This document shows, piece after piece, positions 13,074 to 33,168 of a stretch of 64,000 nucleotides of DNA. The number at the start of each line of letters is the position of its first letter. The first letter of the stretch is position 1. The stretch is from NCBI GenBank assembly GCA_015060015.1, contig SUZG01000001.1, positions 23,605 to 87,604 on the forward strand, read 5' to 3'. The position numbers were made by a program, and so were the translations under genes. The notes below the pieces were generated by a model. That model worked only from the letters and a program-made list of their open reading frames with translations. It had not been told where the DNA came from and did no database searches. Source of the DNA: Rikenellaceae bacterium. GTDB lineage: Bacteria > Bacteroidota > Bacteroidia > Bacteroidales > Rikenellaceae.

Positions 13074-13188
13074 ATTTGTAATGTTTGAAGTTTTGTTCAT
13101 TATTCAACACCCGACAGAGTGTTTTTGACAAAAAGTGCAGTAAAGGTAGTGATTTATTGTCAGAATGACAATTTATACCCCGCTAAAC

Positions 13189-13219
13189 TTTGTCGGGCGT
13201 GATAATTTTCTTACATTTG
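13189..13219 (+). promoter_or_regulatory. Bacteroidota promoter for xerC (-33 TTTG 13189-13192, -7 TACATTTG 13212-13219)
   Basis: Both consensus boxes with a 19-bp spacer. Confidence 0.6.
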
Positions 13220-13293
13220 TGAGGCGTGGCGACAGTTTTCCGGGTTTCTCACACACTGCATTTCGCCCCGCAGACAGAAAACAAGAGCCTTGT

Positions 13294-14208
13294 ATGGATA
13301 ACCTGCAACTCATAGAACGCTTCACACTCTACCTCGCGGCAGAACGTCGTTACTCGCCCCTGACGGTGCGTAACTATCTGCGTGATATTGACGACTTTAT
13401 GGCGTGGGGCGAGAGGATGTCGGGCGGCGAGTTCTCTCTCGCGGAGGCTCGTGGCGAGGATATCCGCAGCTGGGAGCTCTACCTGGCCGATGAACGCCGC
13501 CTGAAACCGCAGTCGATAAATCGTGCTGTGGCATCGTTGCGGACTCTCTACAAATATATGTTGAGCAACGGCATTATCACAAAGGATATCTTCGTGAAGG
13601 TGAGTGCAATGCGTACCGCCAAGCGACTGCCTAAATTTGTGTCGCAGAACACTATGTCGGAGGTTGTGGAGGAGGTGCTGCGACTGCTGCGTGAGGGCGA
13701 GTGGCGTGAGAGGCGGGATGCCCTGCTGGTGCTGCTGCTCTACGCCTGCGGGCTGCGTCTGGCGGAGGTTGTGGGCATCGACAGAGGTGACTTCACTGAC
13801 GATTTTCACTCATTGCGGGTTCGCGGCAAGGGCGACAAGATGCGTATTGTGCCCCTCGTCGAGAGGGTACGTAGCGAGGTTTTGCGATATATTTCCGCAT
13901 TTTCTGCCGAAAAAATTTGCAAAAAAGATGAAAATGCACTATTTTTATCTCCACGTGGAGGTCGTATATCCCGCAGCGACGTACAACGCAGCGTGGCACG
14001 CCTTCTGCGGAGTTGTGGCGTGGATGGCAAATGCTCGCCTCACGTGTTGAGGCACACCTTCGCAACACATCTGCTGAATGACGGTGCCGACATACGCGAG
14101 ATACAGGAGCTGATGGGTCACACCTCACTCAATGCAACGCAGGTATATACCCACAACGATATAGCCTCGTTGCAACGAATATACGCCGAGGCCCACCCGC
14201 GAAAGTAG
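13294..14208 (+). CDS. xerC: Chromosomal tyrosine recombinase XerC/XerD
   Basis: YLAAERRYSPLTVRNY, LLYACGLRLAE (R), GKGDK (K), PHVLRHTFATH (HxxR) and MGH..TQVYTH (H, Y); adjacent to hpf as usual in Bacteroidota. Start set at ATG 13294, downstream of the promoter. Confidence 0.85.
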   Translation: MDNLQLIERFTLYLAAERRYSPLTVRNYLRDIDDFMAWGERMSGGEFSLAEARGEDIRSWELYLADERRLKPQSINRAVASLRTLYKYMLSNGIITKDIFVKVSAMRTAKRLPKFVSQNTMSEVVEEVLRLLREGEWRERRDALLVLLLYACGLRLAEVVGIDRGDFTDDFHSLRVRGKGDKMRIVPLVERVRSEVLRYISAFSAEKICKKDENALFLSPRGGRISRSDVQRSVARLLRSCGVDGKCSPHVLRHTFATHLLNDGADIREIQELMGHTSLNATQVYTHNDIASLQRIYAEAHPRK

Positions 14209-14867: not shown

Positions 14868-16511
14868 CTACTTGCAGCAGGGAGTCCACGGCTTCAACTG
14901 CTTGAAGAAGTCGTTACCCTTGTCATCCACCAGAATAAAGGCGGGGAAGTTCTCAACCTTAATCTTCCATACAGCCTCCATACCCAGCTCGGGATACTCA
15001 ACACACTCGATATCCTTGATATTCTCCTGTGCCAGCAACGCCGCAGGGCCACCGATAGAGCCGAGGTAGAAGCCGCCGTGCTTCTGACAAGCGTCGGTAA
15101 CCTGCTGTGAACGGTTACCCTTGGCAATCATAATGAGTGAGCCGCCCTCCGCCTGAAAAGCATCGACATAGGGGTCCATACGCTGTGCCGTAGTGGGGCC
15201 CATAGAGCCGCAAGGCATACCCGCAGGGGTCTTGGCCGGACCGGCATAATATACGGGGTGCTTCTTGAAATATTCGGGCAGACCCTCGCCTGCATCGAGG
15301 CGTGCCTTCAACTTGGCGTGAGCAATATCGCGTGCCACGATGATAGTACCACTCAGGCTTACGCGTGTGGCTACGGGATACTTCGCAAGCTCCTTGCACA
15401 CCTCGCGGATAGGCTGGTCAAGGTCAATCTTCACGGCATCGCCCTCGCCCGCCTGACGCAGTGCCTCGGGGATAAGCTCGTATGGCTTGGTATCCATCTT
15501 CTCAATCCAAAGGCCATCCTTGTTGATTTTCGCCTTGATGTTACGGTCGGCCGAGCAGCTGACACCCATACCTACGGGGCAAGAGCCGCCGTGACGGGGC
15601 AGACGGATGACGCGAATATCGTGGCAGATATACTTACCGCCGAACTGTGCTCCCAGACCGATGCGATGAGCCTCCTCGGTGAGAATCTTCTCCAGCTCCA
15701 CATCGCGGAAGGCACGGCCTGTCTCGTCGCCTGTGGTGGGGAGGTTATCGTAGAAGTGGGTAGATGCCAACTTTACAGTCAGCAGGTTGCGTTCAACACT
15801 CGTACCGCCCACAACAAAGGCGATATGGTAGGGAGGACACGCCGCCGTACCCAGCGACTTAATCTTCTCTACACAGAAGGGAATCAGCTTCTCGGGGTTG
15901 AGCAGAGCCTTGGTCTCCTGATAGAGATAGGTCTTGTTGGCCGAGCCACCGCCCTTGGCGATGAAGAGGAACTTATACTCCATGCCCTCGGTAGCCTCGA
16001 TATCAATCTGTGCGGGTAGGTTGCAACGCGTATTGACCTCCTCGTACATCGTCAGCGGAGCATTCTGCGAGTAACGCAGATTCTCCTCGGTATAGACATT
16101 ATAGACACCGCGTGAGAGAGCCTCCTCGTCACAGAAGTCGGTCCATACACGCTGACCCTTCTCGCCGTGAATGATAGCCGTACCCGTATCCTGACAGATG
16201 GGCAGCTGACCCTTGCTCGCCACCTCGGCATTGCGAAGCATCGAGAGTGCTACATACTTGTCGTTGTCAGACGACTCGGGGTCGCTTAAAATCTTGGCTA
16301 CCTGTGCGTTGTGCGTGCGACGCATATTGAACGACACATCGTGGAAGGCCTGCTGTGTGAGGCGTGTGAGGGCCTCGGGTGACACCATAAGCACCTCCTT
16401 GCCGTTAAACTCGCTGACCGATACGCCCTCTTTTGTGAGCAAATAGTATTCGGTCTCATCTTTGCCCGTCTGGAACATCGGGGCATACTTAAATTCGGGA
16501 ACTCCTGCCAT
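14868..16511 (-). CDS. fumA: Class I [4Fe-4S] fumarate hydratase (FumA/FumB type); candidate mesaconase
   Basis: [52 protein letters not shown] and [12 protein letters not shown] motifs. Start set at 16511 (MAGVPEF); -7 box TATATTTG at 16557-16564. Confidence 0.93.
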
Positions 16512-16694: not shown

Positions 16695-17108
16695 ATGGAG
16701 AAAAAAACAGTTGTTATTGGAGTTATTGGTGCCGATGCTCACGCCGTTGGCAATAAGATTATCGATTTGACACTCTGCAATCACGGCTTCAATGTCGTGA
16801 ATCTTGGCGTGATGGTATCGCAGGAGGAGTTTATCGACGCTGCTGTCGAGACCTCGGCCGATGCTATTCTGGTATCATCACTTTACGGACACGGCGAGAT
16901 TGACTGTATGGGTCTTCGTCAGAAGTGCGACGAGGCAGGCCTGAAAAATATGCCTCTCTTTGTGGGTGGCAACCTCGTTGTGGGCAAGCAGAATTTCGAA
17001 GATGTGAAGGAGAGATTCCTCGCCATGGGCTTCGACTATGTATATGCCCCCAGCACCCCGATTGAGGAGACTATCGGCGACTTGAAGAAGCATTTGGGCT
17101 TGGAGTAA
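16695..17108 (+). CDS. glmS: Glutamate (methylaspartate) mutase subunit S, B12-binding
   Basis: [14 protein letters not shown] (DxHxxG cobalamin motif), [11 protein letters not shown] and [11 protein letters not shown]. Confidence 0.95.
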
Positions 17109-17142: not shown

Positions 17143-18540
17143 ATGAAATTTCTAACCGTTGATGTAGGCAGCACCTATACCAAGCTGACCGCTATCGACG
17201 CAACAACAAGGGAGATTCTCGGCACGGCACAGGCCTTCACCACCATCGAGAGTGATGTGATGCAGGGCTTCGAGTCTGCGTGGAAGCAACTCACCTCTCC
17301 GCACGAGGGCAATCCGTGTGCGGGCTTCGAGTATGACCAGTTGCTGGTATGCTCGTCAGCGGCAGGAGGCTTGAAGATGGTTGCTCTGGGTCTGGTTCCC
17401 GACCTTACGGCAAAGGCCGCCCGTACGGCAGCCTCAAATGCCGGAGCAAAGGTGGTCAAGACCTACGCTTACGAGATAAGCGGCAGCGAGCAGCAGGAGA
17501 TTTTCGACATAAACCCCGACCTTGTCTTGTTGTGTGGTGGTACGGATGGTGGCAACAGAGAGGTCATCGTCGCCAACGCGAGGCGTCTGGCAGCGATAGA
17601 CCGCCCCTTCACTACCATCGTGGCAGGTAACAAGAGTGCAACGGATGATATTCGTGCCATCTTCGGGGAGGCCCGCAAGGATGTGGTCATCACCGAGAAT
17701 GTTATGCCGCAGTTCAACAAGCTGAACATCGAGCCGGCACGCGACGCCATCCGACAGATCTTCATCGCCCGCATCATCGAGGCCAAGGGTCTGAATCGCC
17801 TGCAAGCGATGACTCCCCACAAGATTATCCCCACGCCGCTGGCCGTATTGCAGGCCTGCGAGCTATTGAGCCGAGGCACAGCCACACAACAGGGCTATGG
17901 CGACCTGCTCGCCGTAGATGTCGGTGGTGCTACGACTGATGTATATTCAATGGCGGCAGGCACTCCTACGGTGGACAACACGATGCTGAAAGGTCTGCCG
18001 GAGCCGTGGGCCAAGCGTACCGTTGAGGGTGACTTGGGTATGCGTTACAGCCTCACGCATGTCTTTGAGCAGCTGCCCGAAAGGGGGTTTCCTCAATATG
18101 AGGAGCAGATGAAGCGTGTGGGCGAGTGGGTCGAGAGATGCTCTTCGCAGCCCGACACCCTGGCACAGCCAGACTCGGAGGAGGAGAAGATTGAGGAGTT
18201 TCTCGGTCGTTCGGCCGTAGCGATGGCCGTAGAACGCCATTGTGGCCGCATAGCCGATGTATATACCCCGCTGGGGCTGATGCACACGCTGGAAGGCAAG
18301 GACCTGATGGATATCCCCGCCGTGGTGGGTATCGGAGGCGTGCTTCGCAACAGCCGCCACCCCGAGGAGATTCTCAAAGGCTCGCTTTATAATGTTATGC
18401 AGCCCGAATCAACCCGCCCCCACAACCCGAAGTTCTATCTCGACAGCCGCTATATATTCGCTGCGATGGGACTTCTGCGTATGGTGGATGAGGAGCTGGC
18501 GTGCGAGTTGTTGCTGCGTGAGACCACAGAGATTGGCTAA
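17143..18540 (+). CDS. glmL: Glutamate mutase accessory/reactivating protein GlmL (MutL)
   Basis: DVGSTYTK, CSSAAGGLKM, LCGGTDGGN, DVGGATTDVYS and KRTVEGDLGMRYS; lies between glmS and glmE. Confidence 0.92.
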   Translation: MKFLTVDVGSTYTKLTAIDATTREILGTAQAFTTIESDVMQGFESAWKQLTSPHEGNPCAGFEYDQLLVCSSAAGGLKMVALGLVPDLTAKAARTAASNAGAKVVKTYAYEISGSEQQEIFDINPDLVLLCGGTDGGNREVIVANARRLAAIDRPFTTIVAGNKSATDDIRAIFGEARKDVVITENVMPQFNKLNIEPARDAIRQIFIARIIEAKGLNRLQAMTPHKIIPTPLAVLQACELLSRGTATQQGYGDLLAVDVGGATTDVYSMAAGTPTVDNTMLKGLPEPWAKRTVEGDLGMRYSLTHVFEQLPERGFPQYEEQMKRVGEWVERCSSQPDTLAQPDSEEEKIEEFLGRSAVAMAVERHCGRIADVYTPLGLMHTLEGKDLMDIPAVVGIGGVLRNSRHPEEILKGSLYNVMQPESTRPHNPKFYLDSRYIFAAMGLLRMVDEELACELLLRETTEIG

Positions 18541-18602: not shown

Positions 18603-20063
18603 ATGGATAGAGAATTAAAAAACCAAAGGATTCCTGATGACGTCTTTATGAAAGAACGTGCCGAGGTGCTGCAACAGTGGCCTACGGGTAAGGAAGTTGA
18701 TTTTAAGGAGGCGGTAGATTATCAGCTCTCTATTGACAAGAGCAAGCGTTTTGGCGAGAAGCTGGCCAAGGCCGACAAGGAGGGTGTGACCCTCGTTCAG
18801 CCCCGTGCCGGTGTGGCTCTCTACCAGGAGCAGATTGAGTTGCTGCAATACCTGGAGAATGAGGGTGGTGCCGACCTTTTGCCCACAACCATCGACAGCT
18901 ACACCCGTCTGAACCGTTACAACGAGTGTCAGGTGGGTATCGAGAAGAGTCAGGCTTCGGGCCGTTCGATGCTCAACGGCTTCCCCGCAGTGAACTATGG
19001 TGCCAAGGTGTGCCGTATGGTTACATCAGCATTGAAGAATCCTGTGCAGGTGCGTCACGGTACGCCCGATGCTCGTCTTCTGACCGAGATTGCCATCGCC
19101 GGAGGTTTTACATCGTACGAGGGTGGCGGTATATCATACAACATCCCCTACTCGAAGAACCACTCTATCGAGCAGACCATCAAGTACTGGCAGTACACCG
19201 ACCGTCTGGTGGGTATGTACGAGGAGGCAGGCGTAAGCATCAACCGCGAGCCGTTTGGACCTCTGACCGGTACGCTTATTCCTCCCTGTATCTCTAACTC
19301 GGTGGCTATCATCGAGACCCTGCTGGCAGCAGCACAGGGCGTGAAGGATGTGACGGTAGGTTATGGCCAGTGCGGTAACCTTATTCAGGATGTTGCCGCT
19401 ATGCGTTCACTGGCGAAGCTCACACGCGAGTATCTCCACAAGTACGGCTACGACGATGTACGCGTGACAACCGTATTCCACCAGTGGATGGGAGGCTTCC
19501 CGCAGGACGAGTCAAAGGCGTTTGGTGTTATCTCGTGGGGTTCGGCTGCCGCTGCGTTGTCGAAGGCTACGAAGGTTATCGTAAAGACCCCGCACGAGGC
19601 TTATGGCGTACCTACCAAGGAGGCCAATGCGTGCGGTCTGCGTGCCACAAAGCAGGTTATCTCGATGCTTCGCGACCAGGATTTGCGTGAGATTCCGCTG
19701 GTTGTTATGGAGAGCCAGATTATCGAGTCGGAGGTGCGTTGCATTATGGACAGAGTCGAGGTATTGGGCAATGGCGATATCGCTGTGGGTACTGTGGCTG
19801 CCTTTGAGGCCGGCATCCTCGATATTCCGTTTGCTCCCAACCGTTTCAACGCAGGCAAGGTGTTGCCGGCACGCGACAACGACGGTGCTATCCGTATTCT
19901 GGAGATGGGCAACCTGCCATTCAGCAGCGACCTGCGTGACTTCCACCGTGAGAAGTTCGAGGAGAGAGCCCGTCAGGAGAAGCGTGAGGTGTCGTTGCAG
20001 ATGGTTATCGACGACGTGAGTGCTATCGAGAAGGGTGTGCTTGTGGGCCGTCCCAAATTGTAA
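18603..20063 (+). CDS. glmE: Glutamate (methylaspartate) mutase subunit E
   Basis: [67 protein letters not shown] and FHQWMGGFP. Confidence 0.96.
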
Positions 20064-20119
20064 TGGAGAGTATCAGAAGAGTATCTGAAGAGTATTAAAT
20101 CAAAAAAATATTGCATATT

Positions 20120-21358
20120 ATGAAGATTAAAAAAGTAGTTTGCTCTGCCGGTAAGACAGGCTTTTTCTTCGATGACCAGAAGGCTATCAAGGCAGGAGCA
20201 AAGAACGACGGTAACTTTTATGTTGGCGAGCCTATGACCGAGGGCTTCACATCTGTTCGCCAGATGGGCGAGTCTATCTCGGTGATGTTTGTCCTGGAGG
20301 ATGGTCAGGTTGCCTTTGGCGACTGTGCTGCTGTGCAGTATTCGGGTGCAGGTGGTCGTGACCCCTTGTTCCTGGCCGAGAACTTTATCCCCGTTATCGA
20401 GAAGGAGATTGCCCCCTTGTATGAGGGTCGCGACATCACCTCGTTCCGCGAGATGGCCGACATTGTGGATAAGATGGTATCACCCTCTACGGGCAAGGTG
20501 TATCACACCGCTATCCGCTACGGCGTGACACAGGCCTGCCTCGACGCTGTTGCCAAGAGCCAGCACAAGCTGATGGCCGAGGTTATCGCTGCGGAGTATG
20601 GCACCGAGGTAAGCGGTGAGATGATTCCTATCTTCACACAGTCGGGCGATGACCGCTATATGAACGCCGACAAGATGATTATGAAGGGTGCTGCCGTATT
20701 GCCCCACGCCCTGTTCAACCACGTTGAGGAGAAGGTGGGCTTGAAGGGCGAGAAGATTGAGGCGTATATCGAGTGGTTGCGTGACCGCGTAATCGCAAAG
20801 AAGCCTTTCGAGAACTACAACCCTATCTTCCATATCGATGTATATGGTACTCTGGGCCTGGTCTTCAATAACGACTTTGAGGCTATCGCCGAGTATATCG
20901 CAGGTCTGGCAAAGATTGCACAGCCCTTCCACCTCCGCGTTGAGGGTCCCGTAGATATGGGCGAGAAGCAGGCACAGATTGAGGCTCTGGCCGCTATCCG
21001 CAAGGCTTTGGAGGCTCGTGGCTCTGACGCCGAGATTGTTGCCGACGAGTGGTGCAACACCTTCGAGGATGTCATCGATTTCACAAAGGCAAAGGCGGGT
21101 CACATGGCACAGATCAAGACTCCCGACCTTGGTGGTATCAACAACTCTATCGAGGCTGTGCTCTACTGCCGCGAGAATGGTATGGGTGCATACCTGGGCG
21201 GTACCTGCAACGAGACCAACCGTTCGGCAGAGGTATGTGCTCACGTGGCAATGGCTACACACCCCAAGCAGTATCTGGCAAAGCCGGGTATGGGTGTAGA
21301 TGAGGGTTATATGATTGTCTTCAACGAGATGTCACGCATCCTCGCGTTGAGAAAATAA
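20120..21358 (+). CDS. mal: 3-methylaspartate ammonia-lyase
   Basis: MKIKKVVCSAGKTGFFFDDQKAIK, GDCAAVQYSGAGGRDPLF, HTAIRYGVTQA, IFTQSGDDRY, VADEWCNT, QIKTPDLGG and LAKPGMGVDEG. ATG at 20120; the ORF track begins at 20111. Confidence 0.96.
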   Translation: MKIKKVVCSAGKTGFFFDDQKAIKAGAKNDGNFYVGEPMTEGFTSVRQMGESISVMFVLEDGQVAFGDCAAVQYSGAGGRDPLFLAENFIPVIEKEIAPLYEGRDITSFREMADIVDKMVSPSTGKVYHTAIRYGVTQACLDAVAKSQHKLMAEVIAAEYGTEVSGEMIPIFTQSGDDRYMNADKMIMKGAAVLPHALFNHVEEKVGLKGEKIEAYIEWLRDRVIAKKPFENYNPIFHIDVYGTLGLVFNNDFEAIAEYIAGLAKIAQPFHLRVEGPVDMGEKQAQIEALAAIRKALEARGSDAEIVADEWCNTFEDVIDFTKAKAGHMAQIKTPDLGGINNSIEAVLYCRENGMGAYLGGTCNETNRSAEVCAHVAMATHPKQYLAKPGMGVDEGYMIVFNEMSRILALRK

Positions 21359-21376
21359 GATTAAATCAGAAAAGTT

Positions 21377-22750
21377 ATGAGTAACGAAAATAAGAGAGAG
21401 ATTCGCGTGCTGTCGCCCACAGCCATTCTCGGCTATGGCTTCCCCGAGGAGTCATTCATCGAGGGTATGCGTCGCAAGCCCGACGTGATTGCTGTGGATG
21501 CCGGCTCTACCGACCCGGGCCCATACTATCTGGGTGCCGGTTATTCGTTCACCGACCGCAACGCCGTAAAGCGTGACCTTGCGATTATGATTCCCGCAGC
21601 CTTGAAGGCCGGCATCCCCGTACTTATCGGTACGGCAGGTGGTAGCGGTGCTCGTCCTCACGTTGAGGAGACCGTAGGCATCATCCGCGAGATTGTCGAG
21701 GAGCAGAAGCTCCACTTCAAGATGGCAGTTATCCAGTCGGAGTTCGACAAGGAGTTCGTGAAGGAGAAGATTCGCAAGGGCGACATCGTACCTCTAGGCC
21801 CCGTTGCCGAGTTGAAGGAGGAGGATGTCGATGAGTCTATCCATATCGTGGCACAGATGGGCGAGGAGCCCTTCATCAAGGCTTTGGAGGAGGGTGCACA
21901 GGTTATCCTCGCCGGCCGCAGCTACGACCCGTGCGAGTTCTCGGCATTGGCTATCAGCCGAGGCTTCGACAAGGCTCTGGCGATACACATGGGTAAGATT
22001 TTGGAGTGTGCTGCCATCACGGCTCTGCCGGGCAGCGGTAGCGACTGTATGATGGGTACTTTGAAGGAGGAGAGCTTCGTTGTCGAGCCTCTGAACCCCA
22101 TCCGCAAGTGTACGGCTCTGTCGGTTGCTGCCCACTCACTTTACGAGAAGTCAAATCCCTACGTTCTGCCCGGCCCGGGTGGTGCTCTGGATTTGCACGA
22201 GACGAAGTTCAATCAGCTGAGTGACACACAGGTCGAGGTCAGTGGCACGAAGTTCATCCCCACCGAGGAGTACTTCGTCAAGCTGGAGGGTGTTCGCCGC
22301 GTGGGCTACCGCACAATGTCGCCTGCGGCTACACACGACCCCGTGATGATAAGCCAGATTGACACCGTTGTCGAGAAGGTACGCGAGAGAGTTATGGATA
22401 ACTTCCGCAACTCGGGTATGAAGGATTTCTACCTCGACTTCAAGATTTATGGCAAGAAGGGCGTGATGAATATGTTCCCCAAGACTCCCGACTCACAGAG
22501 TGACGAGCTTCTGATTATCATCGAGGCTGTGGCACCTACACAGGAGGAGGCCAACACCATCTGCGGCTTTGCACGTTCTACGATGCTGCACTATGGTTAC
22601 GAGGGTCGTATCTCTACCGCCGGAAACCTCGCGTTCCCATTCTCACCGAGTGACTGCAAGATGGGTGCTGTCTATGAGTTCAATGTGTATCACCTGATGC
22701 GTATCGAGGATACCTGTGCTCCATTCCCCATCACTTATACGGAGTTCTAA
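21377..22750 (+). CDS. Acyclic terpene utilization AtuA-family (DUF1446) protein, function unknown
   Basis: LSPTAILGYGFP, DAGSTDPGPYYLG, GTAGGSG, AQMGEEP, ILAGRSYDP and HMGKILECAA motifs. Confidence 0.8.
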   Translation: MSNENKREIRVLSPTAILGYGFPEESFIEGMRRKPDVIAVDAGSTDPGPYYLGAGYSFTDRNAVKRDLAIMIPAALKAGIPVLIGTAGGSGARPHVEETVGIIREIVEEQKLHFKMAVIQSEFDKEFVKEKIRKGDIVPLGPVAELKEEDVDESIHIVAQMGEEPFIKALEEGAQVILAGRSYDPCEFSALAISRGFDKALAIHMGKILECAAITALPGSGSDCMMGTLKEESFVVEPLNPIRKCTALSVAAHSLYEKSNPYVLPGPGGALDLHETKFNQLSDTQVEVSGTKFIPTEEYFVKLEGVRRVGYRTMSPAATHDPVMISQIDTVVEKVRERVMDNFRNSGMKDFYLDFKIYGKKGVMNMFPKTPDSQSDELLIIIEAVAPTQEEANTICGFARSTMLHYGYEGRISTAGNLAFPFSPSDCKMGAVYEFNVYHLMRIEDTCAPFPITYTEF

Positions 22751-22768
22751 ACAAAGGAAGGAGAAGCT

Positions 22769-23089
22769 ATGGCAAAACATAAGTTAATAGATATTGCCTC
22801 TGTCATCAGAAGCAAGAATTCGGGTCCTTACGAATTGACCTTTGATGTTATCTTCAAGGATTTCGAGACCTACGGAAAGGTGAAGGCTGCGAATGCTATC
22901 AACAAGGATAATTTCAGCGAGTTGTATGGCATCGACAAGAGTGATATTCTTCATCTGGTATATTTCGACCCTGCGAAGGCTGTCAAGGTTACCATCTGCC
23001 GTCCTATCCCCAGCGGTGCGTTGGGCGAGACCGACGTCTATGGAGCCCAGCAGCACGCCCCACTTATGGGCCTTGAGGTAGAGTTCTAA
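22769..23089 (+). CDS. DUF4387-family small protein (AtuA partner)
   Basis: LIDIASVIRSKNSGPYELTFDVIF...GETDVYGAQQHAPL. Confidence 0.8.
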   Translation: MAKHKLIDIASVIRSKNSGPYELTFDVIFKDFETYGKVKAANAINKDNFSELYGIDKSDILHLVYFDPAKAVKVTICRPIPSGALGETDVYGAQQHAPLMGLEVEF

Positions 23090-23110
23090 CTCTGCCCCGT
23101 CGCTATGTAA

Positions 23111-23149
23111 CAAAATGCCCGCCTGATGTCAGGCGGGCTTTGTTTGTTT
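23111..23149. terminator. Bidirectional terminator between the glm-mal operon and the convergent lipoprotein gene
   Basis: GCCCGCCTGA-tg-TCAGGCGGGC with A-rich and T-rich flanks. Confidence 0.8.
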
Positions 23150-23163
23150 AATGGACAGAGGGA

Positions 23164-23772
23164 TTACTCGGCTTCATCCCAATTTCGAGTGTAAGTTTGT
23201 TGTACTTTTTCAAGTTCTTCGGGCGTCATTCGCTTGTATGTTCCCAAACCATAGATATTTTTGGTAAATAACGCATTCGTTCCTATATATTCTATGCAGA
23301 CCATTGTATCGTCATCTAATTCAAGCAAACGGAACATCAGGATAGTATTATCTTTTATTCTTATAGCAGAATCCTCAAAAGCATAGTCATAATTGCAGTA
23401 TCCTTTGTCTTCGCCCGGCGGATAGGCAGAGGAAGATGTGTATTGGGTAAGAACTGTTTCATTTATGTAAAAATTATATGAACCTCCACCATCGCGACCT
23501 TCCCAAAAGTTTGCAACTTCTATATTACCATTATCAAAAATCTCGTGAAGATCAATTTGTTTCCAACCATAATTCTTTATTTCGGCTGTAAAAACATCCT
23601 CACTAATACCCTCAAAACTCTGACTATAACACTCTCCTTCCGAGTTAAACGTCAAATTATATTTTGTAGCCACTTCTGTCTCTGGCTCATTGGGAGGTGT
23701 TTGTGGGGTTGATTTATCCTCACACGCCACCATAGCTACTACGGCAAGCAGTGCCAAAAACATTTTTTTCAT
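23164..23772 (-). CDS. Hypothetical lipoprotein (AT-rich gene)
   Basis: MKKMFLALLAVVAMVA-C lipobox followed by an acidic Pro/Thr linker; the sequence is visibly more AT-rich than its neighbours. Confidence 0.75.
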   Translation of the reverse strand: MKKMFLALLAVVAMVACEDKSTPQTPPNEPETEVATKYNLTFNSEGECYSQSFEGISEDVFTAEIKNYGWKQIDLHEIFDNGNIEVANFWEGRDGGGSYNFYINETVLTQYTSSSAYPPGEDKGYCNYDYAFEDSAIRIKDNTILMFRLLELDDDTMVCIEYIGTNALFTKNIYGLGTYKRMTPEELEKVQQTYTRNWDEAE

Positions 23773-23912
23773 AGTAATTAGGTTTTTTTAATCTGATAAT
23801 CTTTCGTAAGAATTTCCATTCTCGCTTGCAAGTTAGTAATAAACAAGCAATTATGCAAATATTTTGACAAAAAGTGCTTGATAGCAACCAAAAAACCTAT
23901 TTTAGGGTTACA

Positions 23913-23958
23913 CCCCATTAACGCGGGTATACAAAAATATACCCGTGCTACTTGGGGA
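23913..23958 (-). terminator. Hairpin downstream of crcB (putative terminator)
   Basis: CCCCA..CGCGGGTATA-caaaaa-TATACCCGTG..TGGGG. Confidence 0.45.
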
Positions 23959-23998
23959 TGACAGAGAGGGATATTTCAAAACGAATCGAGCAAAACCT

Positions 23999-24370
23999 CT
24001 ACTTGGCGACCCAGCGGCCGAGGCAGACCATCACAAGACCCAGCACAAAGGTCAGGCCCGCATATAGCACAAACAGCAGCCAGTGGCGTTGCTCCAGCAT
24101 AAGATAGATATCGTCGGCAAACGACGAAAATGTGGTAAGGCCGCCGCAGAAGCCCGTAACGAGAAACAGATTCATAGCAGGCGACAGCATACCGCCCCTC
24201 TCGGCCCACGCCAGAAAGAGTCCTATCAGAAAACTGCCCACCATATTTACTATAAAGGTAGCCCACGGAAACAGCGAGGAGGTGACAACAGCACACATCT
24301 TACCCGTCAGAAAACGCAGGCAGGTACCCATAAAACCTCCCAAGCCTGCAAAAAACATCATTTTCAGCAT
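23999..24370 (-). CDS. crcB: Fluoride efflux channel CrcB/Fluc
   Basis: GLGGFMGTCLRF, FPWATFIVNMVGSFLIG and LVTGFCGGLTTFSSF. Confidence 0.95.
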   Translation of the reverse strand: MLKMMFFAGLGGFMGTCLRFLTGKMCAVVTSSLFPWATFIVNMVGSFLIGLFLAWAERGGMLSPAMNLFLVTGFCGGLTTFSSFADDIYLMLEQRHWLLFVLYAGLTFVLGLVMVCLGRWVAK

Positions 24371-24659: not shown

Positions 24660-24962
24660 ATGCATTTAACACCAAAAGAGCTTGACAAGTTGACGCTGCT
24701 GTCGTTGGGAATGATAGCAGAAAGACGATTGAAAAAGGGGCTGAAACTAAATCACCCCGAGGCCGTAGCCTACATAACCTCGGAAGCCATAGAGGGTGCT
24801 CGCGAGGGGATGACCGTAGAGCAGGTTATGAGCCGAGCGGCGAAGCTCCTCACACGAAAGGATGTGATGGAGGGCGTAGCCGATATGATTCAACTATTGC
24901 AGGTCGAGGCGGTATTCACCGACGGCTCACGACTTGTGAGTATTCACCACCCCATAAAATAG
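24660..24962 (+). CDS. ureA: Urease subunit gamma
   Basis: [11 protein letters not shown]...[14 protein letters not shown]...[18 protein letters not shown]. Confidence 0.96.
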
Positions 24963-24967
24963 CGACT

Positions 24968-25489
24968 ATGACAAAAGAGAAGAGTGCTGCACGCACAAAG
25001 GAGAGTGCGGCAGCGACAAACCCCAACAGCAAGGGGCTTTATCCCGCCGAGAAGGGTTTCCAGCCCACGAAAGCCACCCCGATAGGAGGTGTGGTGTTCG
25101 GACGGGGCGACATAACATACAACGAGGGACGACAGGTCATAACCCTCACGATACGCAACACGGGCGACAGACCCATACAGGTAGGCTCGCACTTCCACCT
25201 CTTTGAGGTGAACCGATATCTGGAATTTGACCGCAGGGCGGCCTTCGGCTACCACCTCAACATACCCGCCACAACGGCCATACGCTTTGAGCCGGGCGAC
25301 GAGAGGAGCATCGAGGCGGTGGCCTTCGCCGGAAAACGCCGCATAATAGGCTTCAACGGTCTTACCGAGGGGTATGCCGGCACGGAGGATAGCCCCACAT
25401 ACCTGCCCACAGAGCATCGTGCCATACACCGTATGCACAAGGCAGGATTCAGATGCAGCTGCAAGAAGTGTAACACTAAAAAAGAGTAA
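24968..25489 (+). CDS. ureB: Urease subunit beta with N- and C-terminal extensions
   Basis: [19 protein letters not shown] and [15 protein letters not shown]. Confidence 0.95.
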
Positions 25490-25491
25490 CT

Positions 25492-27210
25492 ATGGCAAAA
25501 CTTACGCGACAGGAGTACAACAACCTATTCGGCCCAACCGTAGGCGACAAGATTCGTCTGGGCGACACCGACCTCTATGTGGAGATAGAACGCGATATGC
25601 GTCGCTACGGCGACGAGGTGGTCTATGGCGGTGGCAAGACGCTGCGTGACGGTATGGGTCTGGCCAACACTGTAACATCGGAGCAGGGAGCTCTCGACAT
25701 AGTAATAACGAATGTGACAATCATAGATGCCATATTGGGTGTGGTGAAGGCCGACGTAGGCATAAAGGATGGCCGCATAGCGGGCATAGGCAAGGCGGGC
25801 AACCCCAACATTATGGACGGCGTGTCGCCCGAACTCGTCACGGGAGCCGCCACCGACGCCATATCGGGTGAGCATCTCATACTCACCGCCGGCGGTATCG
25901 ACTCACACGTTCACTTCGTATCGCCACAGCAGGCATACACAGCCCTGAGCAACGGCATAACGACACTCATAGGTGGCGGCATAGGCCCCTCGGACGGCAC
26001 AAACGGAACGACCATAACATCGGGACGCTGGTCCACCGAGCAGATGCTGCTCTCGGTGGAGGAGCTGCCTGTGAATGTGGGTCTGCTGGGCAAGGGTAAC
26101 TGCTCGGCGAAGCCTGCGATAAAGGAGCAGATTGAGGCGGGCGTATGCGGATTGAAGATTCACGAGGACTGGGGCTCAACACCCGAAGCCATACGCACAG
26201 CCCTGTCGGTGGCCGACAAGTATAATGTGCAGGTGGCCATACACACCGACACACTGAACGAGGCGGGATATGTCGAAGACACCATAGCCGCCATAGATGG
26301 CCGCACGATACACACCTACCACACCGAGGGTGCCGGCGGAGGACACGCCCCCGACCTGATGAAGGTGGCGTCGATGCCCTTCGTGCTGCCCTCATCGACA
26401 AACCCCACACTGCCCTTCGGCATAAACTCACAGGCCGAGTTGTTTGATATGATTATGGTGTGTCACAACCTCAACCCCAACATCCCGTCGGATGTAGCCT
26501 TTGCCGAGAGCCGCGTAAGGCCCGAGACACAGGCGGCAGAGAATGTGCTGCACGATTTGGGCGTATTGTCGATGGTGTCGTCCGACTCGCAGGCGATGGG
26601 CCGAGTGGGCGAGTCGTATATGCGTACATTCCAGATGGCTTCGTTTATGAAGAGTGCCTGCGGCCGCTTGGAGGAGGACTCGGCCGAGAACGACAACTTC
26701 CGCGTGCTGCGATACATAGCCAAGATAACGATCAACCCCGCCATAACATTCGGCGTGGCGGACTACATAGGCTCGGTCGAGAAGGGCAAGGTTGCCGACC
26801 TTGTGCTGTGGGAGCCGCAGTTCTTCGGTGCGAAGCCCAAGATGGTAATCAAGGGTGGCGTGATAAACTGGGCGAACATGGGCGATGCCAATGCCTCACT
26901 GCCCACGCCACAGCCCTGCCTCTATCGCCCGATGTTCGGTGCTTTTGGCGGTGCTATGCCGGCGAGCTGCATATCGTTTGTGTCGCAGGCGGCCTGCCGG
27001 AACGGCATTGCCGAACATTTGGGTCTGCGTCGTCAGGTGCTGCCCGTACGCCGCACACGCCAGCTCTCGAAGGGCGATATGGTACGCAACGGAGCAACGC
27101 CACGCATAGATGTCAATCCGGAGAGTTTCGAGGTGATGGTAAATAACATACACGCCTACGTGAAGCCGGCCGAGAGATTTCCGCTGTCGCAACTCTATTG
27201 GTTTGGGTAG
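25492..27210 (+). CDS. ureC: Urease subunit alpha
   Basis: [13 protein letters not shown]; Ni ligands DSHVH, LKIHED (carbamylated Lys), [13 protein letters not shown], flap MVCHNL and SSDSQAMGR. Confidence 0.98.
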
Positions 27211-27211
27211 T

Positions 27212-27772
27212 ATGATAGTCTGCGACACTATTCTGGGCAACATCCACGACGAGGAGTGGGCCGCACGCCTCGCAGCGTACAGCATAGAGGAGATTATGCT
27301 CGACCAATGGACGGCACAGAAGAGCCGTTTTATGGTTCATGCCGCCGATGGCGAGGAGTATGCCGTAACGCTGCAACGCAACACGCGGCTGCAAGATGGC
27401 GACATAATACACTGCGACGAGGCGACTCTTCGCCTCACTGTTGTGCGGATGGACCTCAACGAGGTGATGGAGATTGACCTTTGTCAGCTGCTGGACGAGC
27501 AGCCCGACGACATAATACATACGGCCGTTGCTCTCGGTCACTCCCTCGGCAACCAGCACTGGCCCGCAGTGGTCAAGGGGTGCAAAGTATATGTGCCACT
27601 GACGGTGGACAGGAAGGTTATGGCGAGTGTTATGCGTACGCACAACTTCGACAACATAACATTCTCGTTCCGCAACGGCAAGGAGATTATACCCTACCTC
27701 TCGCCGCACGAACTGCGGCGTCTGTTTGGCGGGGATGAGCATAACGAACATCACACGCACGATGAGAGATAA
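27212..27772 (+). CDS. ureE: Urease accessory protein UreE (Ni chaperone)
   Basis: LDQWTAQKSRF, RLQDGDII and LGHSLGNQHWPAVV; short His tail EHNEHHTH. ATG at 27212. Confidence 0.9.
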   Translation: MIVCDTILGNIHDEEWAARLAAYSIEEIMLDQWTAQKSRFMVHAADGEEYAVTLQRNTRLQDGDIIHCDEATLRLTVVRMDLNEVMEIDLCQLLDEQPDDIIHTAVALGHSLGNQHWPAVVKGCKVYVPLTVDRKVMASVMRTHNFDNITFSFRNGKEIIPYLSPHELRRLFGGDEHNEHHTHDER

Positions 27773-28496
27773 CCGCCCCACCGCAGAGGTTGTGATGCGT
27801 CTGCTGCAACTCTCGGACTCGGCCCTGCCCATAGGCACATTCTCCTTCTCGAACACGCTGGAGAGTGCTGTGGAGTGGGGCGTGGTGGGCGACAGGGAGT
27901 CGCTGCAAGAGTATTGCTCCGAGCTTTTACGGGTGGTGGCACTGACCGATGGTGTGGCGGCTCTGCACGCACTCAAAGCCTGTAACAGAGCCCGTTATGA
28001 CGATATTCTGCGAGCCGACAAACTGCTCTTTTGCAGCAAAGCATCCGACGAGGCCCGTCTGATGACGCAGCGTATGGGGCGAAAACTCGCAGAGTTGGGG
28101 GTGGCACTCGCAACATCTGAAAACAACCCCACCGAGGAGCATAAGGCCTCTGCAACGATACTACGCTGGCACGACGACATACGCAGCGGAAAAGCCGCAG
28201 GGTGCTGTGCCGTATCGCAGGGCATCATAGCCTCCACATTCGGTATCGGCGAGGAAGCTTTGTTCGCCTCGCTATGCTACTCGGCGGCGATGATGATACT
28301 CTCGGCGGCACTGCGGTCGATGCGTGTGACGCACATCGTCACGCAGCAGATTATCGGCGAGATATGCCACCTCGCAGAGCCTCTGCTTGCAGAAGCGAGA
28401 GGTCTTACCGTAGAGGATATGCAGAGCTTCGCCTTGGAGTATGATATTATGGCTTCACTCCACGAAAAGGGAGATAAGCGTTTGTTTATGAACTGA
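27762..28496 (+). CDS. ureF: Urease accessory protein UreF
   Basis: [24 protein letters not shown]...[11 protein letters not shown]. Start is uncertain (27726, 27735 or 27762). Confidence 0.9.
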
Positions 28497-28503
28497 TTGG
28501 ACA

Positions 28504-29145
28504 ATGAACACAACTTGCAGAATAGGCATAGGCGGGCCCGTAGGGTCGGGCAAGACCGCCATAATAGAGGCCATAACGCCTCGCCTGCTTGATGCCGGCC
28601 ACCGCGTGCTGATTATCACCAACGATGTGGTAACAACCGAGGATGCACAGCACGTCAGGCGTATGTTGAAGGGTATTTTGGTCGAGGAACGTATCATTGG
28701 CGTAGAGACGGGTGCCTGCCCCCACACAGCCGTAAGAGAGGACCCCTCGATGAATCTGGCCGCCGTAGAGGAGATGGAGAGTCGCTTCCCCGATGGTGAT
28801 GTGGTGCTGATTGAGTCGGGTGGCGACAACCTGACACTCACATTCAGCCCCGCACTTGTCGATTTCTTTATCTATGTGATAGATGTGGCGGCGGGCGACA
28901 AGATTCCACGCAAGGATGGGCCGGGGATATCGCACTCCGACATACTCGTAATCAACAAATTTGACCTCGCACCATATGTCAATGCCGACCTCGACGTTAT
29001 GCGTCGTGACTCAAAGGCGATGCGTGGCAACAAACCCTTCGTTTTCACGAACTGTATGACGGGCGAGGGCATAGCCGAGCTTACCGAGATGATACGGCGT
29101 ATGGCTCTGCTCGACCACATAACACCCTCACGGAACGATGATTAG
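28504..29145 (+). CDS. ureG: Urease accessory GTPase UreG
   Basis: [24 protein letters not shown] and NKFD. Confidence 0.96.
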
Positions 29146-30103
29146 CGATTGGCACAAGGCCGACAACGACACCAACACTCCGCACAATGCCGACACCAAC
29201 ACTCCGCACGAGGTGCTGCGTTACATCAGTCCGACACCCTACGCCCGACTCGGCACGACGGGCAAGTCGGGTTTTCTGCGGCTCGGCTTCGAGTGCGACG
29301 CCAGCGGGCGGACAATACTTCGCGACTGGGAACGCCGCGTGCCACTCATCGTGCAGCAGGCTCTCTACTTCGACGAGCAGTTGCCCGATATGGCGTGTGT
29401 CTATATACTCTCGTCGGGAGGCCCCAACCTCGATGGCGACCGCTACGAGCAACTATTCACGCTGCGACGCGGAGCAATGGTACACCTCTCGACGGGTGCC
29501 GCCACGAAGATTGCCGAGATGCGTCACAACTACTCCTCGCTGCGGCAACATATACGCCTGGAAGAGGGCTCCTATCTGGAGTATCTGCCCGAGCCGGTGA
29601 TACCCTGCCGGCACTCGCGTTACATATCCGACACGCAGATAACCATAGCTCACTCGGCGGTGTTGCTCTATGGCGAGATATACCTCCCCGGACGGCGACA
29701 CTACGGGCGTGGCGAGAGGTTTGAGTATGACCTGCTGTCGGTGGCTATGCGTGTAGAGAGGGAGGATGGCGAACTGCTCTTTCGCGAGAAATTTACAGTT
29801 GAACCACACCGACACCACCCGCAGCGGAGAGGTGCTATGGGAGAATACGAGATATTTGCCAATGTGGTGCTTATAGCCGATGAGCCGATAGCCGACGACA
29901 TATATAACGCCACCACGCCCGCAATAGACCACGCCGAGGAACTGCTCTACGGCATCACGCGGCTGCCCAACCACTGCGGCGTGCAGCTCAAGGTGCTGGG
30001 CAACAGCACCGACAAGGTAAAACGGCTGGTGCGTCACTTTGCATCGCGAGTGAGGCAGAGGGTGAAGCACAAGCCTTTGAGAGATGATTTTGTTTGGAGA
30101 TAA
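29138..30103 (+). CDS. ureD: Urease accessory protein UreD
   Basis: [39 protein letters not shown] and [16 protein letters not shown]. Confidence 0.9.
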
Positions 30104-30112
30104 ATTACTGAT

Positions 30113-31156
30113 ATGGAAGAGATTAAGACATTAGAAGCGGAGTCTGCGGAGCAGACCACCCGCAGCGTGATAGACGAACTTCTACGGGGTGCCGGGCAGG
30201 TGATGTTTCAGAATAATGTATGGACCGGACTGTTCTTCCTGATAGCCATATTCTGGGGCTCGCTGCGTGAGGGCGAGATGATGGTGGCGTGGGGAGCATT
30301 GCTCGGTCTTGCGACATCGTCGGTTACGGGCCACATCTTGCGACTCCCCGCCGCCGACGGCCGTCAGGGGTTGTGGGGCTTCAACGGCATATTGGTCGGC
30401 TGTGCCTTTCCGACATTTTTAGGCGAAACGACAGGTATGTGGATAGCCCTTATAATATGTGCTGCGATGACTACCTGGGTGAGGTCGGGGCTGAACAATG
30501 TGATGGCTCCGTGGAAGGTGAACTCCTTCACCTTTCCCTTTGTGCTTTGCACCTGGATATTCCTCCTCGCTGCACGAGCCATGCAGGGCATACCCATCGA
30601 CGATATGTCCACGCCCTCGCTACCCTCGCACTTCACCTCGCTATCGACAATTCCGCCATTGCACCTGCTGGAATATTGGCTCAAAGGCGTGGCACAGGTC
30701 TTTCTGATTAACTCGTGGGAGGCGGGTCTGCTCATACTGATAGGTCTGGCGGCGAATGACCGCTGGGCGGCATTGTGGGCGGCGATAGGCTCTGCTGTGG
30801 CGTTGCTCTGTGCCATAGCGTTCCGGGCCGCAGGCAACGATGTGGCAGGAGGCCTGTATGGATTCAGCCCCGTACTCACTGCCATAGCCCTCGCCACAGT
30901 CTTCTACAAACCCAACTGGCGGTCGGCACTATGGTCGCTGATGGGCATCATAGTAACGGTCTTTGTGCAGGCGGCGATGAATATTGTTATGCAGCCGATA
31001 GGCATACCCACCCTCACAGGCCCCTTCTGCGTGGCGACGTGGTTGTTCCTGCTGCCTATGATACGCCTCGACTATCAGACCGAGCTGGACCACTCGAACT
31101 GGAGTGTCGAGAACAAGCCGCACCTCGCACGACACAGCTCAAAAAAGCCGAAATAA
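30113..31156 (+). CDS. Urea transporter (UT/Yut/UreT family)
   Basis: Duplicated halves GAGQVMFQNN..TGLFF / GVAQVFLINS, GLWGFNG / GLYGFSP and LTGPFCVATW. Confidence 0.92.
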   Translation: MEEIKTLEAESAEQTTRSVIDELLRGAGQVMFQNNVWTGLFFLIAIFWGSLREGEMMVAWGALLGLATSSVTGHILRLPAADGRQGLWGFNGILVGCAFPTFLGETTGMWIALIICAAMTTWVRSGLNNVMAPWKVNSFTFPFVLCTWIFLLAARAMQGIPIDDMSTPSLPSHFTSLSTIPPLHLLEYWLKGVAQVFLINSWEAGLLILIGLAANDRWAALWAAIGSAVALLCAIAFRAAGNDVAGGLYGFSPVLTAIALATVFYKPNWRSALWSLMGIIVTVFVQAAMNIVMQPIGIPTLTGPFCVATWLFLLPMIRLDYQTELDHSNWSVENKPHLARHSSKKPK

Positions 31157-31221
31157 TAGGATTTCTCCAAATGATATTACTCCTGTTCCGAAGAGTTTCC
31201 AACGATTAAAAAACTTACGTT

Positions 31222-33008: not shown

Positions 33009-33011
33009 TTT

Positions 33012-33154
33012 CGGAATTATCTATTTTAGGCTTGTTGCTAAAAAATAGATTCTCACGCATTTGTTTTTCGTCACTCTGAGAGAGGCTTGCCGACCGTGAG
33101 AGTCTAAAAACAAATGCTCAGAATGACGTTACAAGCCTAAATGATATAATTCCG
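33012..33154. mobile_element. MITE-like element copy 2 (143 bp) inserted between cbiQ and cbiO
   Basis: TIRs match at 21/24 (33012-33035 CGGAATTATCTATTTTAGGCTTGT; 33131-33154 ACAAGCCTAAATGATATAATTCCG). Perfect 8-bp direct duplication TTTAGTTT at 33004-33011 and 33155-33162. Core 33047-33130 differs from copy 1 only in T-run length (5 vs 7) and one G/A substitution. Confidence 0.82.
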
Positions 33155-33168
33155 TTTAGTTTTATGCT

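Follow-up and report, generated by a model that had tools for sequence, protein, structure and literature searches.

A probable CmlAB-type citramalate lyase in the methylaspartate operon of an Alistipes-type member of the Bacteroidales

How citramalate is cleaved by organisms equipped with glutamate mutase and methylaspartase but lacking a CitDEF-type lyase was raised as an explicit question in 2015 (PMC4682846), and it has since been answered by structures of CmlAB and by metabolic engineering with the cmlAB genes. The same question is posed by the locus described here, in a 64-kb stretch of Bacteroidales DNA (hereafter, the window), where a gene of the AtuA/DUF1446 family and a DUF4387 gene follow those for glutamate mutase and 3-methylaspartate ammonia-lyase. 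Kronen & Berg saw a DUF1446 gene downstream of mal in an enterobacterial cluster and left the fate of citramalate open; they also pointed out that the label '3-methylaspartate ammonia-lyase' carried by the DUF1446 protein has no known basis (PMC4682846). Whole-word searches of the literature on CmlAB and its two families found only that study and a 2026 preprint (10.64898/2026.01.16.699985) to be relevant.

Six plus-strand ORFs between positions 16695 and 23089 encode, in this order, GlmS, GlmL, GlmE, Mal, the AtuA-family protein and the DUF4387 protein (Table 1). They are separated by short gaps of 34, 62, about 50, 18 and 18 nt, as befits the single operon described in the initial annotation. 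The gene for GlmS comes first in the conserved operon, and mal has another possible start, a TTG codon at 20111. GlmL and Mal both score above the cutoffs of equivalog models (NF040745 accessory_GlmL, 599.8 bits for a cutoff of 475, and TIGR01502, 594.6 bits for a cutoff of 286, respectively). The DUF4387 protein reaches 139.4 bits, the Pfam cutoff being 27, and the AtuA-family protein 72.7 bits for a cutoff of 22.8, the latter match covering just part of the profile (positions 59-207 of 437). An Rfam scan upstream of the operon revealed no cobalamin or other riboswitch. No counterpart of the operon was detected by megablast among 5,426 E. coli genomes, the window being of Bacteroidales and not of enterobacterial origin. 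An integrase gene (13165-14208) was considered as a mark of a mobile island. This idea was dropped because the integrase and the next gene, coding for a ribosome hibernation factor, occupy the same place in three independent contigs (L001-L003) with identical cmlA genes; there is no other sign of a mobile element.

Table 1. Features of the methylaspartate locus, in window coordinates
Feature	Coordinates	Strand	Evidence
Fused class I (Fe-S) fumarate hydratase, candidate mesaconase	14868..16511	-	Pfam Fumerase, E 3e-78; Fumerase_C, E 1.6e-83
glmS, B12-binding small subunit of glutamate mutase	16695..17108	+	Pfam B12-binding, E 3.7e-14
glmL/mutL, accessory (reactivating) protein of glutamate mutase	17143..18540	+	Pfam MutL, E 5e-166
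glmE, catalytic subunit of glutamate mutase	18603..20063	+	Pfam Met_asp_mut_E, E 1.5e-223
mal, 3-methylaspartate ammonia-lyase	20120..21358	+	Pfam MAAL_N and MAAL_C
cmlA ortholog, AtuA/DUF1446 family, putative citramalate lyase large subunit	21377..22750	+	PF07287; 457 aa
cmlB ortholog, DUF4387, putative citramalate lyase small subunit	22769..23089	+	PF14330, E 6.5e-41; 106 aa
Intrinsic terminator hairpin closing the operon	23117..23138	+	9-bp stem, 8 G-C pairs, 4-nt loop, T-rich tail

The strong terminator previously placed at 23111-23149 was located by a terminator scan within that range, as a hairpin that begins 27 nt past the cmlB stop codon and is followed by TTTGTTTGTT. It is bidirectional, with its other side turned towards a convergent ORF at 23164-23772. 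Gut metatranscriptome contigs cross the mal-cmlA junction (19701-21663 and 21304-21614) as well as the cmlA-cmlB junction. RNA-derived contigs stop at 23121 and 23145, and contig depth is zero across 23262-23598. As assembled contigs that possibly contain DNA, these data weakly back the operon and its terminator.

A Pfam scan of the roughly 50 substantial ORFs of the window detected no CitD, CitE, CitF, CoA-transferase or HMGL-like domain, which bears out the earlier statement that citrate or citramalate lyase, CoA-transferase and HMG-CoA-lyase-like genes are absent from it. The same ORFs contain no domains of the citC, citX and citG activation genes. Likewise, no domains typical of atu neighbours, i.e. 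geranyl-CoA carboxylase subunits, acyl-CoA dehydrogenase or enoyl-CoA hydratase, are found in the 64 kb.

The identity of the pair is suggested by two PDB entries, 9ERQ and 9EVF, in which an AtuA-like chain is named 'Citramalate lyase, subunit A (cmlA)' and a DUF4387 chain 'subunit B (cmlB)'. Entry 9EVF, released on 2025-10-08, is entitled 'Citramalate lyase - ADP - pyruvate complex'. In phmmer searches of the PDB, residues 7-446 of the AtuA-family protein align with residues 3-439 of 9erq_A/9evf_A (E 4e-153, 513 bits), and the identity to 9erq_A is 56% over 434 columns, full length. The DUF4387 protein matches 9erq_B, also over its full length (residues 3-106, E 1e-27, 49.5% identity). The AlphaFold2 model of the window CmlA (pLDDT 89.4) superimposes on 9evf_A with a TM score of 0.91 (Foldseek, E 1.6e-63). 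That chain is the only PDB neighbour with an E value below 1e-3; the further matches (E at least 0.01, TM at most 0.18) are uninformative, and the fold therefore yields no independent clue to the mechanism. In a comparison of 104 near-full-length family members, drawn from the 150 top-scoring of 2454 sequence clusters, every position conserved in 95% or more of them (D46, G48, P49, G91, G180, R181, D184, E257, E304 and others) is kept both in the window CmlA and in 9erq_A.

What CmlAB does in vivo is reported in the preprint, in which free citramalate is described as being split directly into pyruvate and acetate by means of the Raoultella planticola genes (10.64898/2026.01.16.699985). Growth on mesaconate and labelling of acetyl-CoA required the cmlAB plasmid; the cmlAB strains, whose genes were received as a gift, grew only on mesaconate and not on racemic citramalate (10.64898/2026.01.16.699985). 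We thus propose, with a probability of about 0.9, that the window pair is the CmlAB ortholog of an Alistipes-type member of the Bacteroidales. CmlAB, a citramalate lyase made of two subunits, would need neither CoA nor an acyl carrier protein. This assignment is based on homology and predicted fold, on the pairing of the two subunits, on the structure of the operon and on conserved synteny. The lyase activity is attributed from depositor names in the PDB and one preprint, both of which concern homologs, and an identity of 56% might allow a shift in specificity. The initial annotation had proposed an undescribed citramalate(-CoA) lyase. Citramalate cleavage agrees with the names of 9ERQ and 9EVF and with the preprint, but 'undescribed' no longer applies given the release date of 9EVF: the enzyme is already known, and the Alistipes pair is an uncharacterised ortholog of a known enzyme.

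With GlmS, GlmE, GlmL, Mal and an adjacent mesaconase candidate, all recognised by Pfam or NCBIfam models, the window holds the parts of the methylaspartate pathway. The mesaconase candidate, a class I fumarase gene divergent from glmS, is an obvious one that the initial annotation had not mentioned. Its best NCBIfam match is a class I fumarate hydratase subfamily (956.7 bits, under the cutoff of that model), and the same arrangement is found in the closely related loci L006-L011. Hydration of mesaconate has been described for the class I fumarases FumA, FumB and FumD (PMC4682846). Glutamate would be converted to 3-methylaspartate by GlmS/GlmE, with GlmL keeping the mutase active, and Mal would then release ammonia to form mesaconate. 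The fumarase would hydrate the latter to (S)-citramalate, and CmlA with CmlB would cleave (S)-citramalate to pyruvate and acetate. The pathway appears complete because the divergent fumarase can supply the mesaconase step, and if CmlAB indeed cleaves (S)-citramalate, it replaces the clostridial CitDEF-type complex.

We surveyed synteny at 80 species-level loci. The gene order is well conserved, with mal immediately preceding cmlA in about 66 of 69 informative loci (Bacteroidales, Treponema, Defluviitaleaceae and Enterobacteriaceae), cmlB immediately following cmlA in about 76 of 78, and glmE present at 58 of 59. In many Bacteroidales the operon extends into split class I fumarase genes, and cmlAB therefore lies between mal and the mesaconase genes. 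This synteny weighs against the possibility that the pair is a CmlAB paralog with another substrate, such as (R)-citramalate, malate, citrate or another 2-hydroxy-dicarboxylate, rather than an isofunctional citramalate lyase. Such a shift would be compatible with identities of only 56% and 49.5% to the structurally characterised enzyme, with the size of the AtuA family (2454 representatives at 50% clustering, whose identity falls off smoothly between 55% and 34%, without a clear break at the edge of the orthologs), and with a few genomes in which cmlAB is found apart from glm and mal (L025, L062, L065). Nevertheless, the linkage to mal throughout the survey, the position of the window pair 18 nt downstream of mal in the gene order of the enterobacterial type locus, and the fact that the upstream enzymes can deliver only (S)-citramalate make a different substrate improbable.

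Some UniRef and NCBI names of family members mention acyl-CoA transferases ('predicted acyl-CoA transferase/carnitine dehydratase'), and the classical proposal of AtuA as an HIHG-CoA lyase involves a CoA ester, so that dependence on CoA, in the form of a citramalyl-CoA lyase or of a CoA-transferase, might be envisaged. However, the homolog was crystallised with ADP and pyruvate and not with CoA, free citramalate is cleaved directly to pyruvate and acetate according to the preprint (10.64898/2026.01.16.699985), and genes for a CoA-transferase or ligase are absent from both the window and the enterobacterial locus. The '-CoA' variant of the earlier proposal is accordingly not favoured, and we regard any CoA-dependent activity as very improbable. 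Least probable of all is a role at another step or a non-catalytic one, whether as a second methylaspartate ammonia-lyase, a mesaconate hydratase or a regulatory or accessory protein: many records do label the AtuA-like protein '3-methylaspartate ammonia-lyase', but this is the label for which Kronen & Berg knew of no basis (PMC4682846), MAAL and enolase-superfamily domains are absent from the protein, and those steps are already accounted for by a genuine mal and by the class I fumarase.

If the pair is a CoA-independent citramalate lyase, the question arises of what a nucleotide contributes to the reaction. Since the homolog was crystallised with ADP together with pyruvate, a nucleotide may be bound at or near the active site. 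The carbanion of acetate cannot be stabilised on a free carboxylate, and for this reason the nucleotide may serve as a carboxylate activator. Its likeliest role would be to activate the C4 carboxylate transiently, for instance by forming an acyl phosphate whose phosphate later goes back to ADP, with no net use of ATP. Alternatively, the nucleotide might be purely structural or allosteric.

The putative citramalate lyase of the window might also inform on the AtuA family at large; a relative is encoded in at least 578 species-level genomes. Of the 150 best family representatives, 19 carry DUF4387 fused to the AtuA-like domain, and such natural fusions suggest that the pairing is ancient. In most Bacteroidales operons, an unannotated P-loop protein, missing from the window, is encoded immediately after cmlB; a Walker A motif was its only recognisable feature, with no Pfam, NCBIfam or PDB relative. 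The copy at L030 (11793-12737) is 314 residues long. It is tempting to speculate that the family as a whole, perhaps with Pseudomonas AtuA among its members, consists of C-C lyases that are assisted by a nucleotide and take free 3-hydroxy-acids, dispensing with CoA and acyl carrier protein, that genomic context dictates the substrate of each, and that the P-loop protein is an accessory factor dispensable in the lineage of the window. This idea, to which the ancient pairing and the residues conserved in at least 95% of the 104 members gave rise, is a tentative one that we consider rather doubtful. If true, the window pair would stand as a single example of a far larger class.

The window adds gut Alistipes to the bacteria that probably use this solution to citramalate cleavage, and the survey extends it to numerous Bacteroidales of the mouth and gut (Prevotella, Porphyromonas, Tannerella, Dysgonomonas, Petrimonas), to some Treponema and to Defluviitaleaceae. 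It follows that these organisms can be annotated as glutamate fermenters with a complete methylaspartate pathway. In Pfam, NCBIfam release 20 and RefSeq (September 2026), the proteins are called 'AtuA family', 'DUF4387' or, wrongly, '3-methylaspartate ammonia-lyase', and NCBIfam has no model for CmlA or CmlB. Because of these outdated names, pathway reconstructions from gut microbiomes will miss the citramalate cleavage step.

Among known systems, the Pseudomonas gene cluster for acyclic terpene utilisation (atu) encodes AtuA, which shares its Pfam family, PF07287, with the window protein. The latter fits that profile only partly, compared with its 513 bits to CmlA, and atu-type neighbours are absent. 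In the utilisation of mesaconate or itaconate, (S)-citramalyl-CoA lyase and succinyl-CoA:citramalate CoA-transferase likewise break down the citramalate skeleton to pyruvate and a C2 unit (PMC4682846, Fig. 2). Unlike CmlAB, that lyase acts on a CoA ester, yields acetyl-CoA, belongs to HpcH/CitE-like families and needs the CoA-transferase; neither an HpcH/CitE-like (S)-citramalyl-CoA lyase nor a CoA-transferase is encoded in the window. In Clostridium tetanomorphum, a CitDEF-type citramalate lyase complex (Buckel & Bobi 1976, cited in PMC4682846) shares with CmlAB the reaction, the position in the pathway and the kind of gene cluster. The proteins themselves are unrelated, and CitDEF requires an acyl carrier subunit that bears an acetyl-thioester prosthetic group, as well as the activation genes citC, citX and citG.

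The closest counterpart is CmlAB of the Enterobacteriaceae, to whose clade the crystallised CmlA belongs. At locus L085, which encodes a protein with 94% identity to the crystallised chain, the order is glmS-mutL-glmE-mal-AtuA-DUF4387-gltP-cobA-LTTR. The enterobacterial operon thus runs on into gltP and cobA, whereas that of the window stops at its terminator; the window also differs by its Bacteroidota, Alistipes-type origin and by its mesaconase candidate, a divergent fused class I fumarase. Both systems combine an AtuA/DUF1446 large subunit with a DUF4387 small subunit of nearly the same lengths (456 and 105 residues in the enterobacterial enzyme, 457 and 106 in the window), and both have the core order glmS-glmL-glmE-mal-cmlA-cmlB.

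At the level of sequence, the PDB search settles the identity of the AtuA-like/DUF4387 pair, whose proteins are predicted to be the citramalate lyase subunits CmlA and CmlB. The 457-aa AtuA-family protein matches chains 9erq_A/9evf_A over residues 7-446 (E 4e-153; 56% identity over 434 columns), and the 106-aa DUF4387 protein matches 9erq_B (E 1e-27; 49.5% over 103 columns), whose entry name combines 'DUF4387 domain-containing protein' with 'Citramalate lyase, subunit B (cmlB)'. An AlphaFold2 model of the larger protein, built from a 40-sequence alignment (mean pLDDT 89.4, pTM 0.87), superposes with a TM of 0.91 on 9evf_A, from the entry entitled 'Citramalate lyase - ADP - pyruvate complex' (released 2025-10-08). 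For this model, the search yielded no second PDB chain at E < 1e-3, and the fold family thus has one PDB representative. The initial annotation had proposed that the pair supplies the missing citramalate lyase, and the PDB matches, the fold and synteny bear this out. The enzyme is not undescribed, as had also been supposed, since its structures became public in October 2025 and it already serves as a tool.

In 2015, Kronen and Berg noted a DUF1446 gene after mal in Enterobacteriaceae and Dictyoglomus, often mis-annotated as methylaspartate ammonia-lyase. In the same study, citramalate proved not to be a substrate of the citrate, isocitrate and methylisocitrate lyases of E. coli, and the authors concluded that 'the fate of (S)-citramalate ... 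is still unclear' (PMC4682846). More recently, an E. coli acetyl-CoA auxotroph was reported to grow on mesaconate only with a cmlAB plasmid, with mesaconate label recovered in acetyl-CoA of the cmlAB strain; racemic citramalate gave no growth of the cmlAB-dependent auxotroph (10.64898/2026.01.16.699985). The citramalate lyase activity of CmlAB rests on this preprint and on the names given by the PDB depositors. Our own analysis contributes homology, fold, subunit pairing, operon structure and synteny, and we consider it very probable (about 90%) that the two window genes encode an isofunctional citramalate lyase.

Listing the ORFs and scanning them against Pfam and NCBIfam recovered the ORFs, families and gene order of the operon as initially described, and a terminator scan placed a hairpin 27 nt after the cmlB stop codon. 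From glmS to cmlB, the intergenic gaps are 34, 62, ~50, 18 and 18 nt.

Features of the glm-mal-cmlAB operon and its immediate flanks
Feature	Position	Strand	Evidence
Fused class I fumarate hydratase	14868-16511	divergent from glmS	Pfam/NCBIfam
glmS	16695-17108	+	B12-binding domain (Pfam)
glmL/mutL	17143-18540	+	NCBIfam GlmL equivalog, 599.8 bits vs cutoff 475
glmE	18603-20063	+	Met_asp_mut_E, E 1.5e-223
mal	20120-21358	+	TIGR01502, 594.6 bits vs cutoff 286
cmlA (AtuA-family ORF)	21377-22750	+	PF07287, 72.7 bits; profile positions 59-207 of 437 only
cmlB (DUF4387 ORF)	22769-23089	+	PF14330, E 6.5e-41
Terminator hairpin	23117-23138		9-bp stem, 8 G-C pairs, T-rich tail
202-codon ORF	23164-23772	-	lipoprotein-like N-terminus MKKMFLALLAVVAMVAC

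Four gut metatranscriptomes yielded contigs that cover the operon. These bridge the mal-cmlA junction (19701-21663 and 21304-21614) and the cmlA-cmlB junction, end at 23121 and 23145, and leave zero depth across 23262-23598. These data hint at one transcript that terminates at the hairpin, weakly, because the assembled contigs may contain DNA. In the iron-limitation transcriptome of Prevotella intermedia OMA14, PIOMA14_II_0010-12, a methylaspartate ammonia-lyase and adjoining AtuA-family genes, shift together 2.2- to 2.5-fold (PMC10434189), as expected if mal and cmlAB are co-regulated in this oral Bacteroidales species.

The search for other lyases took in every substantial ORF of the window (~50), using direct Pfam scans and precomputed families on identical contigs. 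No CitD, CitE, CitF, CoA-transferase or HMGL-like domain was found by Pfam in these ORFs across the 64 kb, and the earlier statement that no other citramalate-cleaving gene lies in the window was correct. The initial annotation left the divergent fumarate hydratase unmentioned. FumA, FumB and FumD, which are class I fumarases, convert mesaconate to (S)-citramalate by hydration (PMC4682846), and this gene is a natural mesaconase candidate.

On its 5' side, the operon is flanked by a tyrosine recombinase, a ribosome hibernation factor and an RND efflux system, and on its 3' side by a strain-variable 202-codon ORF, crcB, a complete urease cluster with a urea transporter, and CbiMQO. The 202-codon ORF, without a match in Pfam/NCBIfam scans, sits where GC is low (0.457 over 22001-24000), is missing from the otherwise near-identical contig L002 and is omitted by a metatranscriptome contig that jumps from 23145 to 23999; all this suggests an insertion between the terminator and crcB that varies among strains. 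The urease cluster (24660-33906, +), right after crcB, comprises ureA, ureB, ureC, ureE, ureF, ureG and ureD, the urea transporter (PF03253) and a CbiM/CbiQ/ABC ATPase transporter, whose cargo is probably nickel. Its location beside the operon places two ammonia-releasing systems next to each other in this Alistipes-type genome. Antisense within the urease alpha-subunit gene, an Rfam 5_ureB_sRNA match (25642-25942, -; 57.4 bits vs gathering score 40) may merely echo the conserved urease coding sequence underlying that Helicobacter antisense RNA family.

When one genome per GTDB species was scanned, at least 578 genomes had a relative, the nearest being an Alistipes sp. MAG (97%). The best 80 are mostly Bacteroidales (Alistipes, Prevotella, Hoylesella, Porphyromonas, Tannerella, Dysgonomonas, Petrimonas, Proteiniphilum, Paludibacter), together with one Treponema, two Defluviitaleaceae and one Elusimicrobiota MAG. 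By tblastn with the window proteins, mal is directly 5' of cmlA in 64 of the 69 loci with sufficient upstream sequence, the others being left out of this count. cmlB is directly 3' in 75/78 loci and overlaps cmlA by 1 nt in one more; glmE is found in 58/59 loci and glmS in 57/59. Two of the five loci missing mal (L017, L029) do possess it, dropped by the distance filter only. The genuine exceptions are a Porphyromonadaceae isolate (L025), an Elusimicrobiota MAG (L062) and a Prevotellaceae MAG (L065), with cmlA, usually cmlB, and unrelated housekeeping genes as neighbours, no glm or mal being nearby. These copies may receive citramalate from elsewhere or act on another substrate. In many Bacteroidales, class I fumarase genes, split into Fumerase N- and C-terminal domains, extend the operon beyond cmlB, so that cmlAB stands between the genes for the mesaconate-making and mesaconate-hydrating enzymes. 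With 56% identity to the crystallised chain, the window pair might be a paralog of shifted specificity, a possible reading against which the mal linkage argues.

Searched exhaustively at E <= 1e-3, 1.84 billion cluster representatives yielded 2454 AtuA-like members. Among the best 150, 19 are natural fusions with a C-terminal DUF4387 domain, which lends independent support to a two-subunit enzyme. The window protein keeps all positions conserved at >= 95% across 104 near-full-length members (D46, G48, P49, G91, G162, G180, R181, D184, E257, E304, G310, G359).

Acetate release by retro-aldol cleavage from a free carboxylate is chemically unfavourable, and the classical enzymes therefore work through activated esters: in CitDEF an acetyl-thioester carried by an acyl carrier protein, in citramalyl-CoA lyase a CoA ester. 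That ADP and pyruvate are bound together in CmlAB suggests transient carboxylate activation, with a putative role for ADP. The C4 carboxylate of citramalate would be activated via phosphoryl transfer and the phosphate handed back to ADP, with no net ATP use; net ATP synthesis from the near-equilibrium cleavage of citramalate is thermodynamically implausible. Alternatively, the nucleotide might be structural or allosteric. A CoA-dependent enzyme is disfavoured by the crystal ligands, by the absence of CoA-transferase/ligase genes from the window and the enterobacterial locus, and by the preprint, which describes (S)-citramalate cleavage to pyruvate and acetate by CmlAB without CoA (10.64898/2026.01.16.699985).

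In many public records, the AtuA-like protein appears as '3-methylaspartate ammonia-lyase' or as 'predicted acyl-CoA transferase/carnitine dehydratase'. The former label is baseless, because the protein carries neither a MAAL nor an enolase-type domain and its gene is preceded by a genuine mal. Neither subunit is covered by a model in NCBIfam release 20, and 'citramalate lyase' was not found among the family records examined (E. coli RefSeq, clusters), including RefSeq of September 2026. What is new here is minor: a Bacteroidales ortholog with activity predicted by homology, the spread in gut and oral Bacteroidales, and this annotation lag.

A ~314-aa protein with a Walker A motif (GDAGSGKS; L030:11793-12737 in Hoylesella marshii) is encoded directly 3' of cmlB and 5' of the split fumarase genes in 55/80 species loci, those of Treponema and Defluviitaleaceae among them. 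Its gene is absent from this position in the window's Alistipes lineage, and, apart from the P-loop, searches of Pfam, NCBIfam and the PDB gave no relatives. The protein may have an accessory function in the pathway, either in B12 handling or with the nucleotide-binding lyase.

Crystallised CmlA shares 92-94% identity with cluster representatives of Citrobacter, Klebsiella, Salmonella and E. coli, and by this similarity is a member of the enterobacterial clade. The gene order glmS-mutL-glmE-mal-AtuA-DUF4387-gltP-cobA-LTTR is found on a contig encoding a protein with 94% identity to the PDB chain. The window pair has every trait of CmlAB open to sequence tools, and fits neither CitDEF nor the Pseudomonas atu system. 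The enterobacterial CmlAB locus has the same core gene order as the window, which is also that of the cluster drawn by Kronen and Berg.
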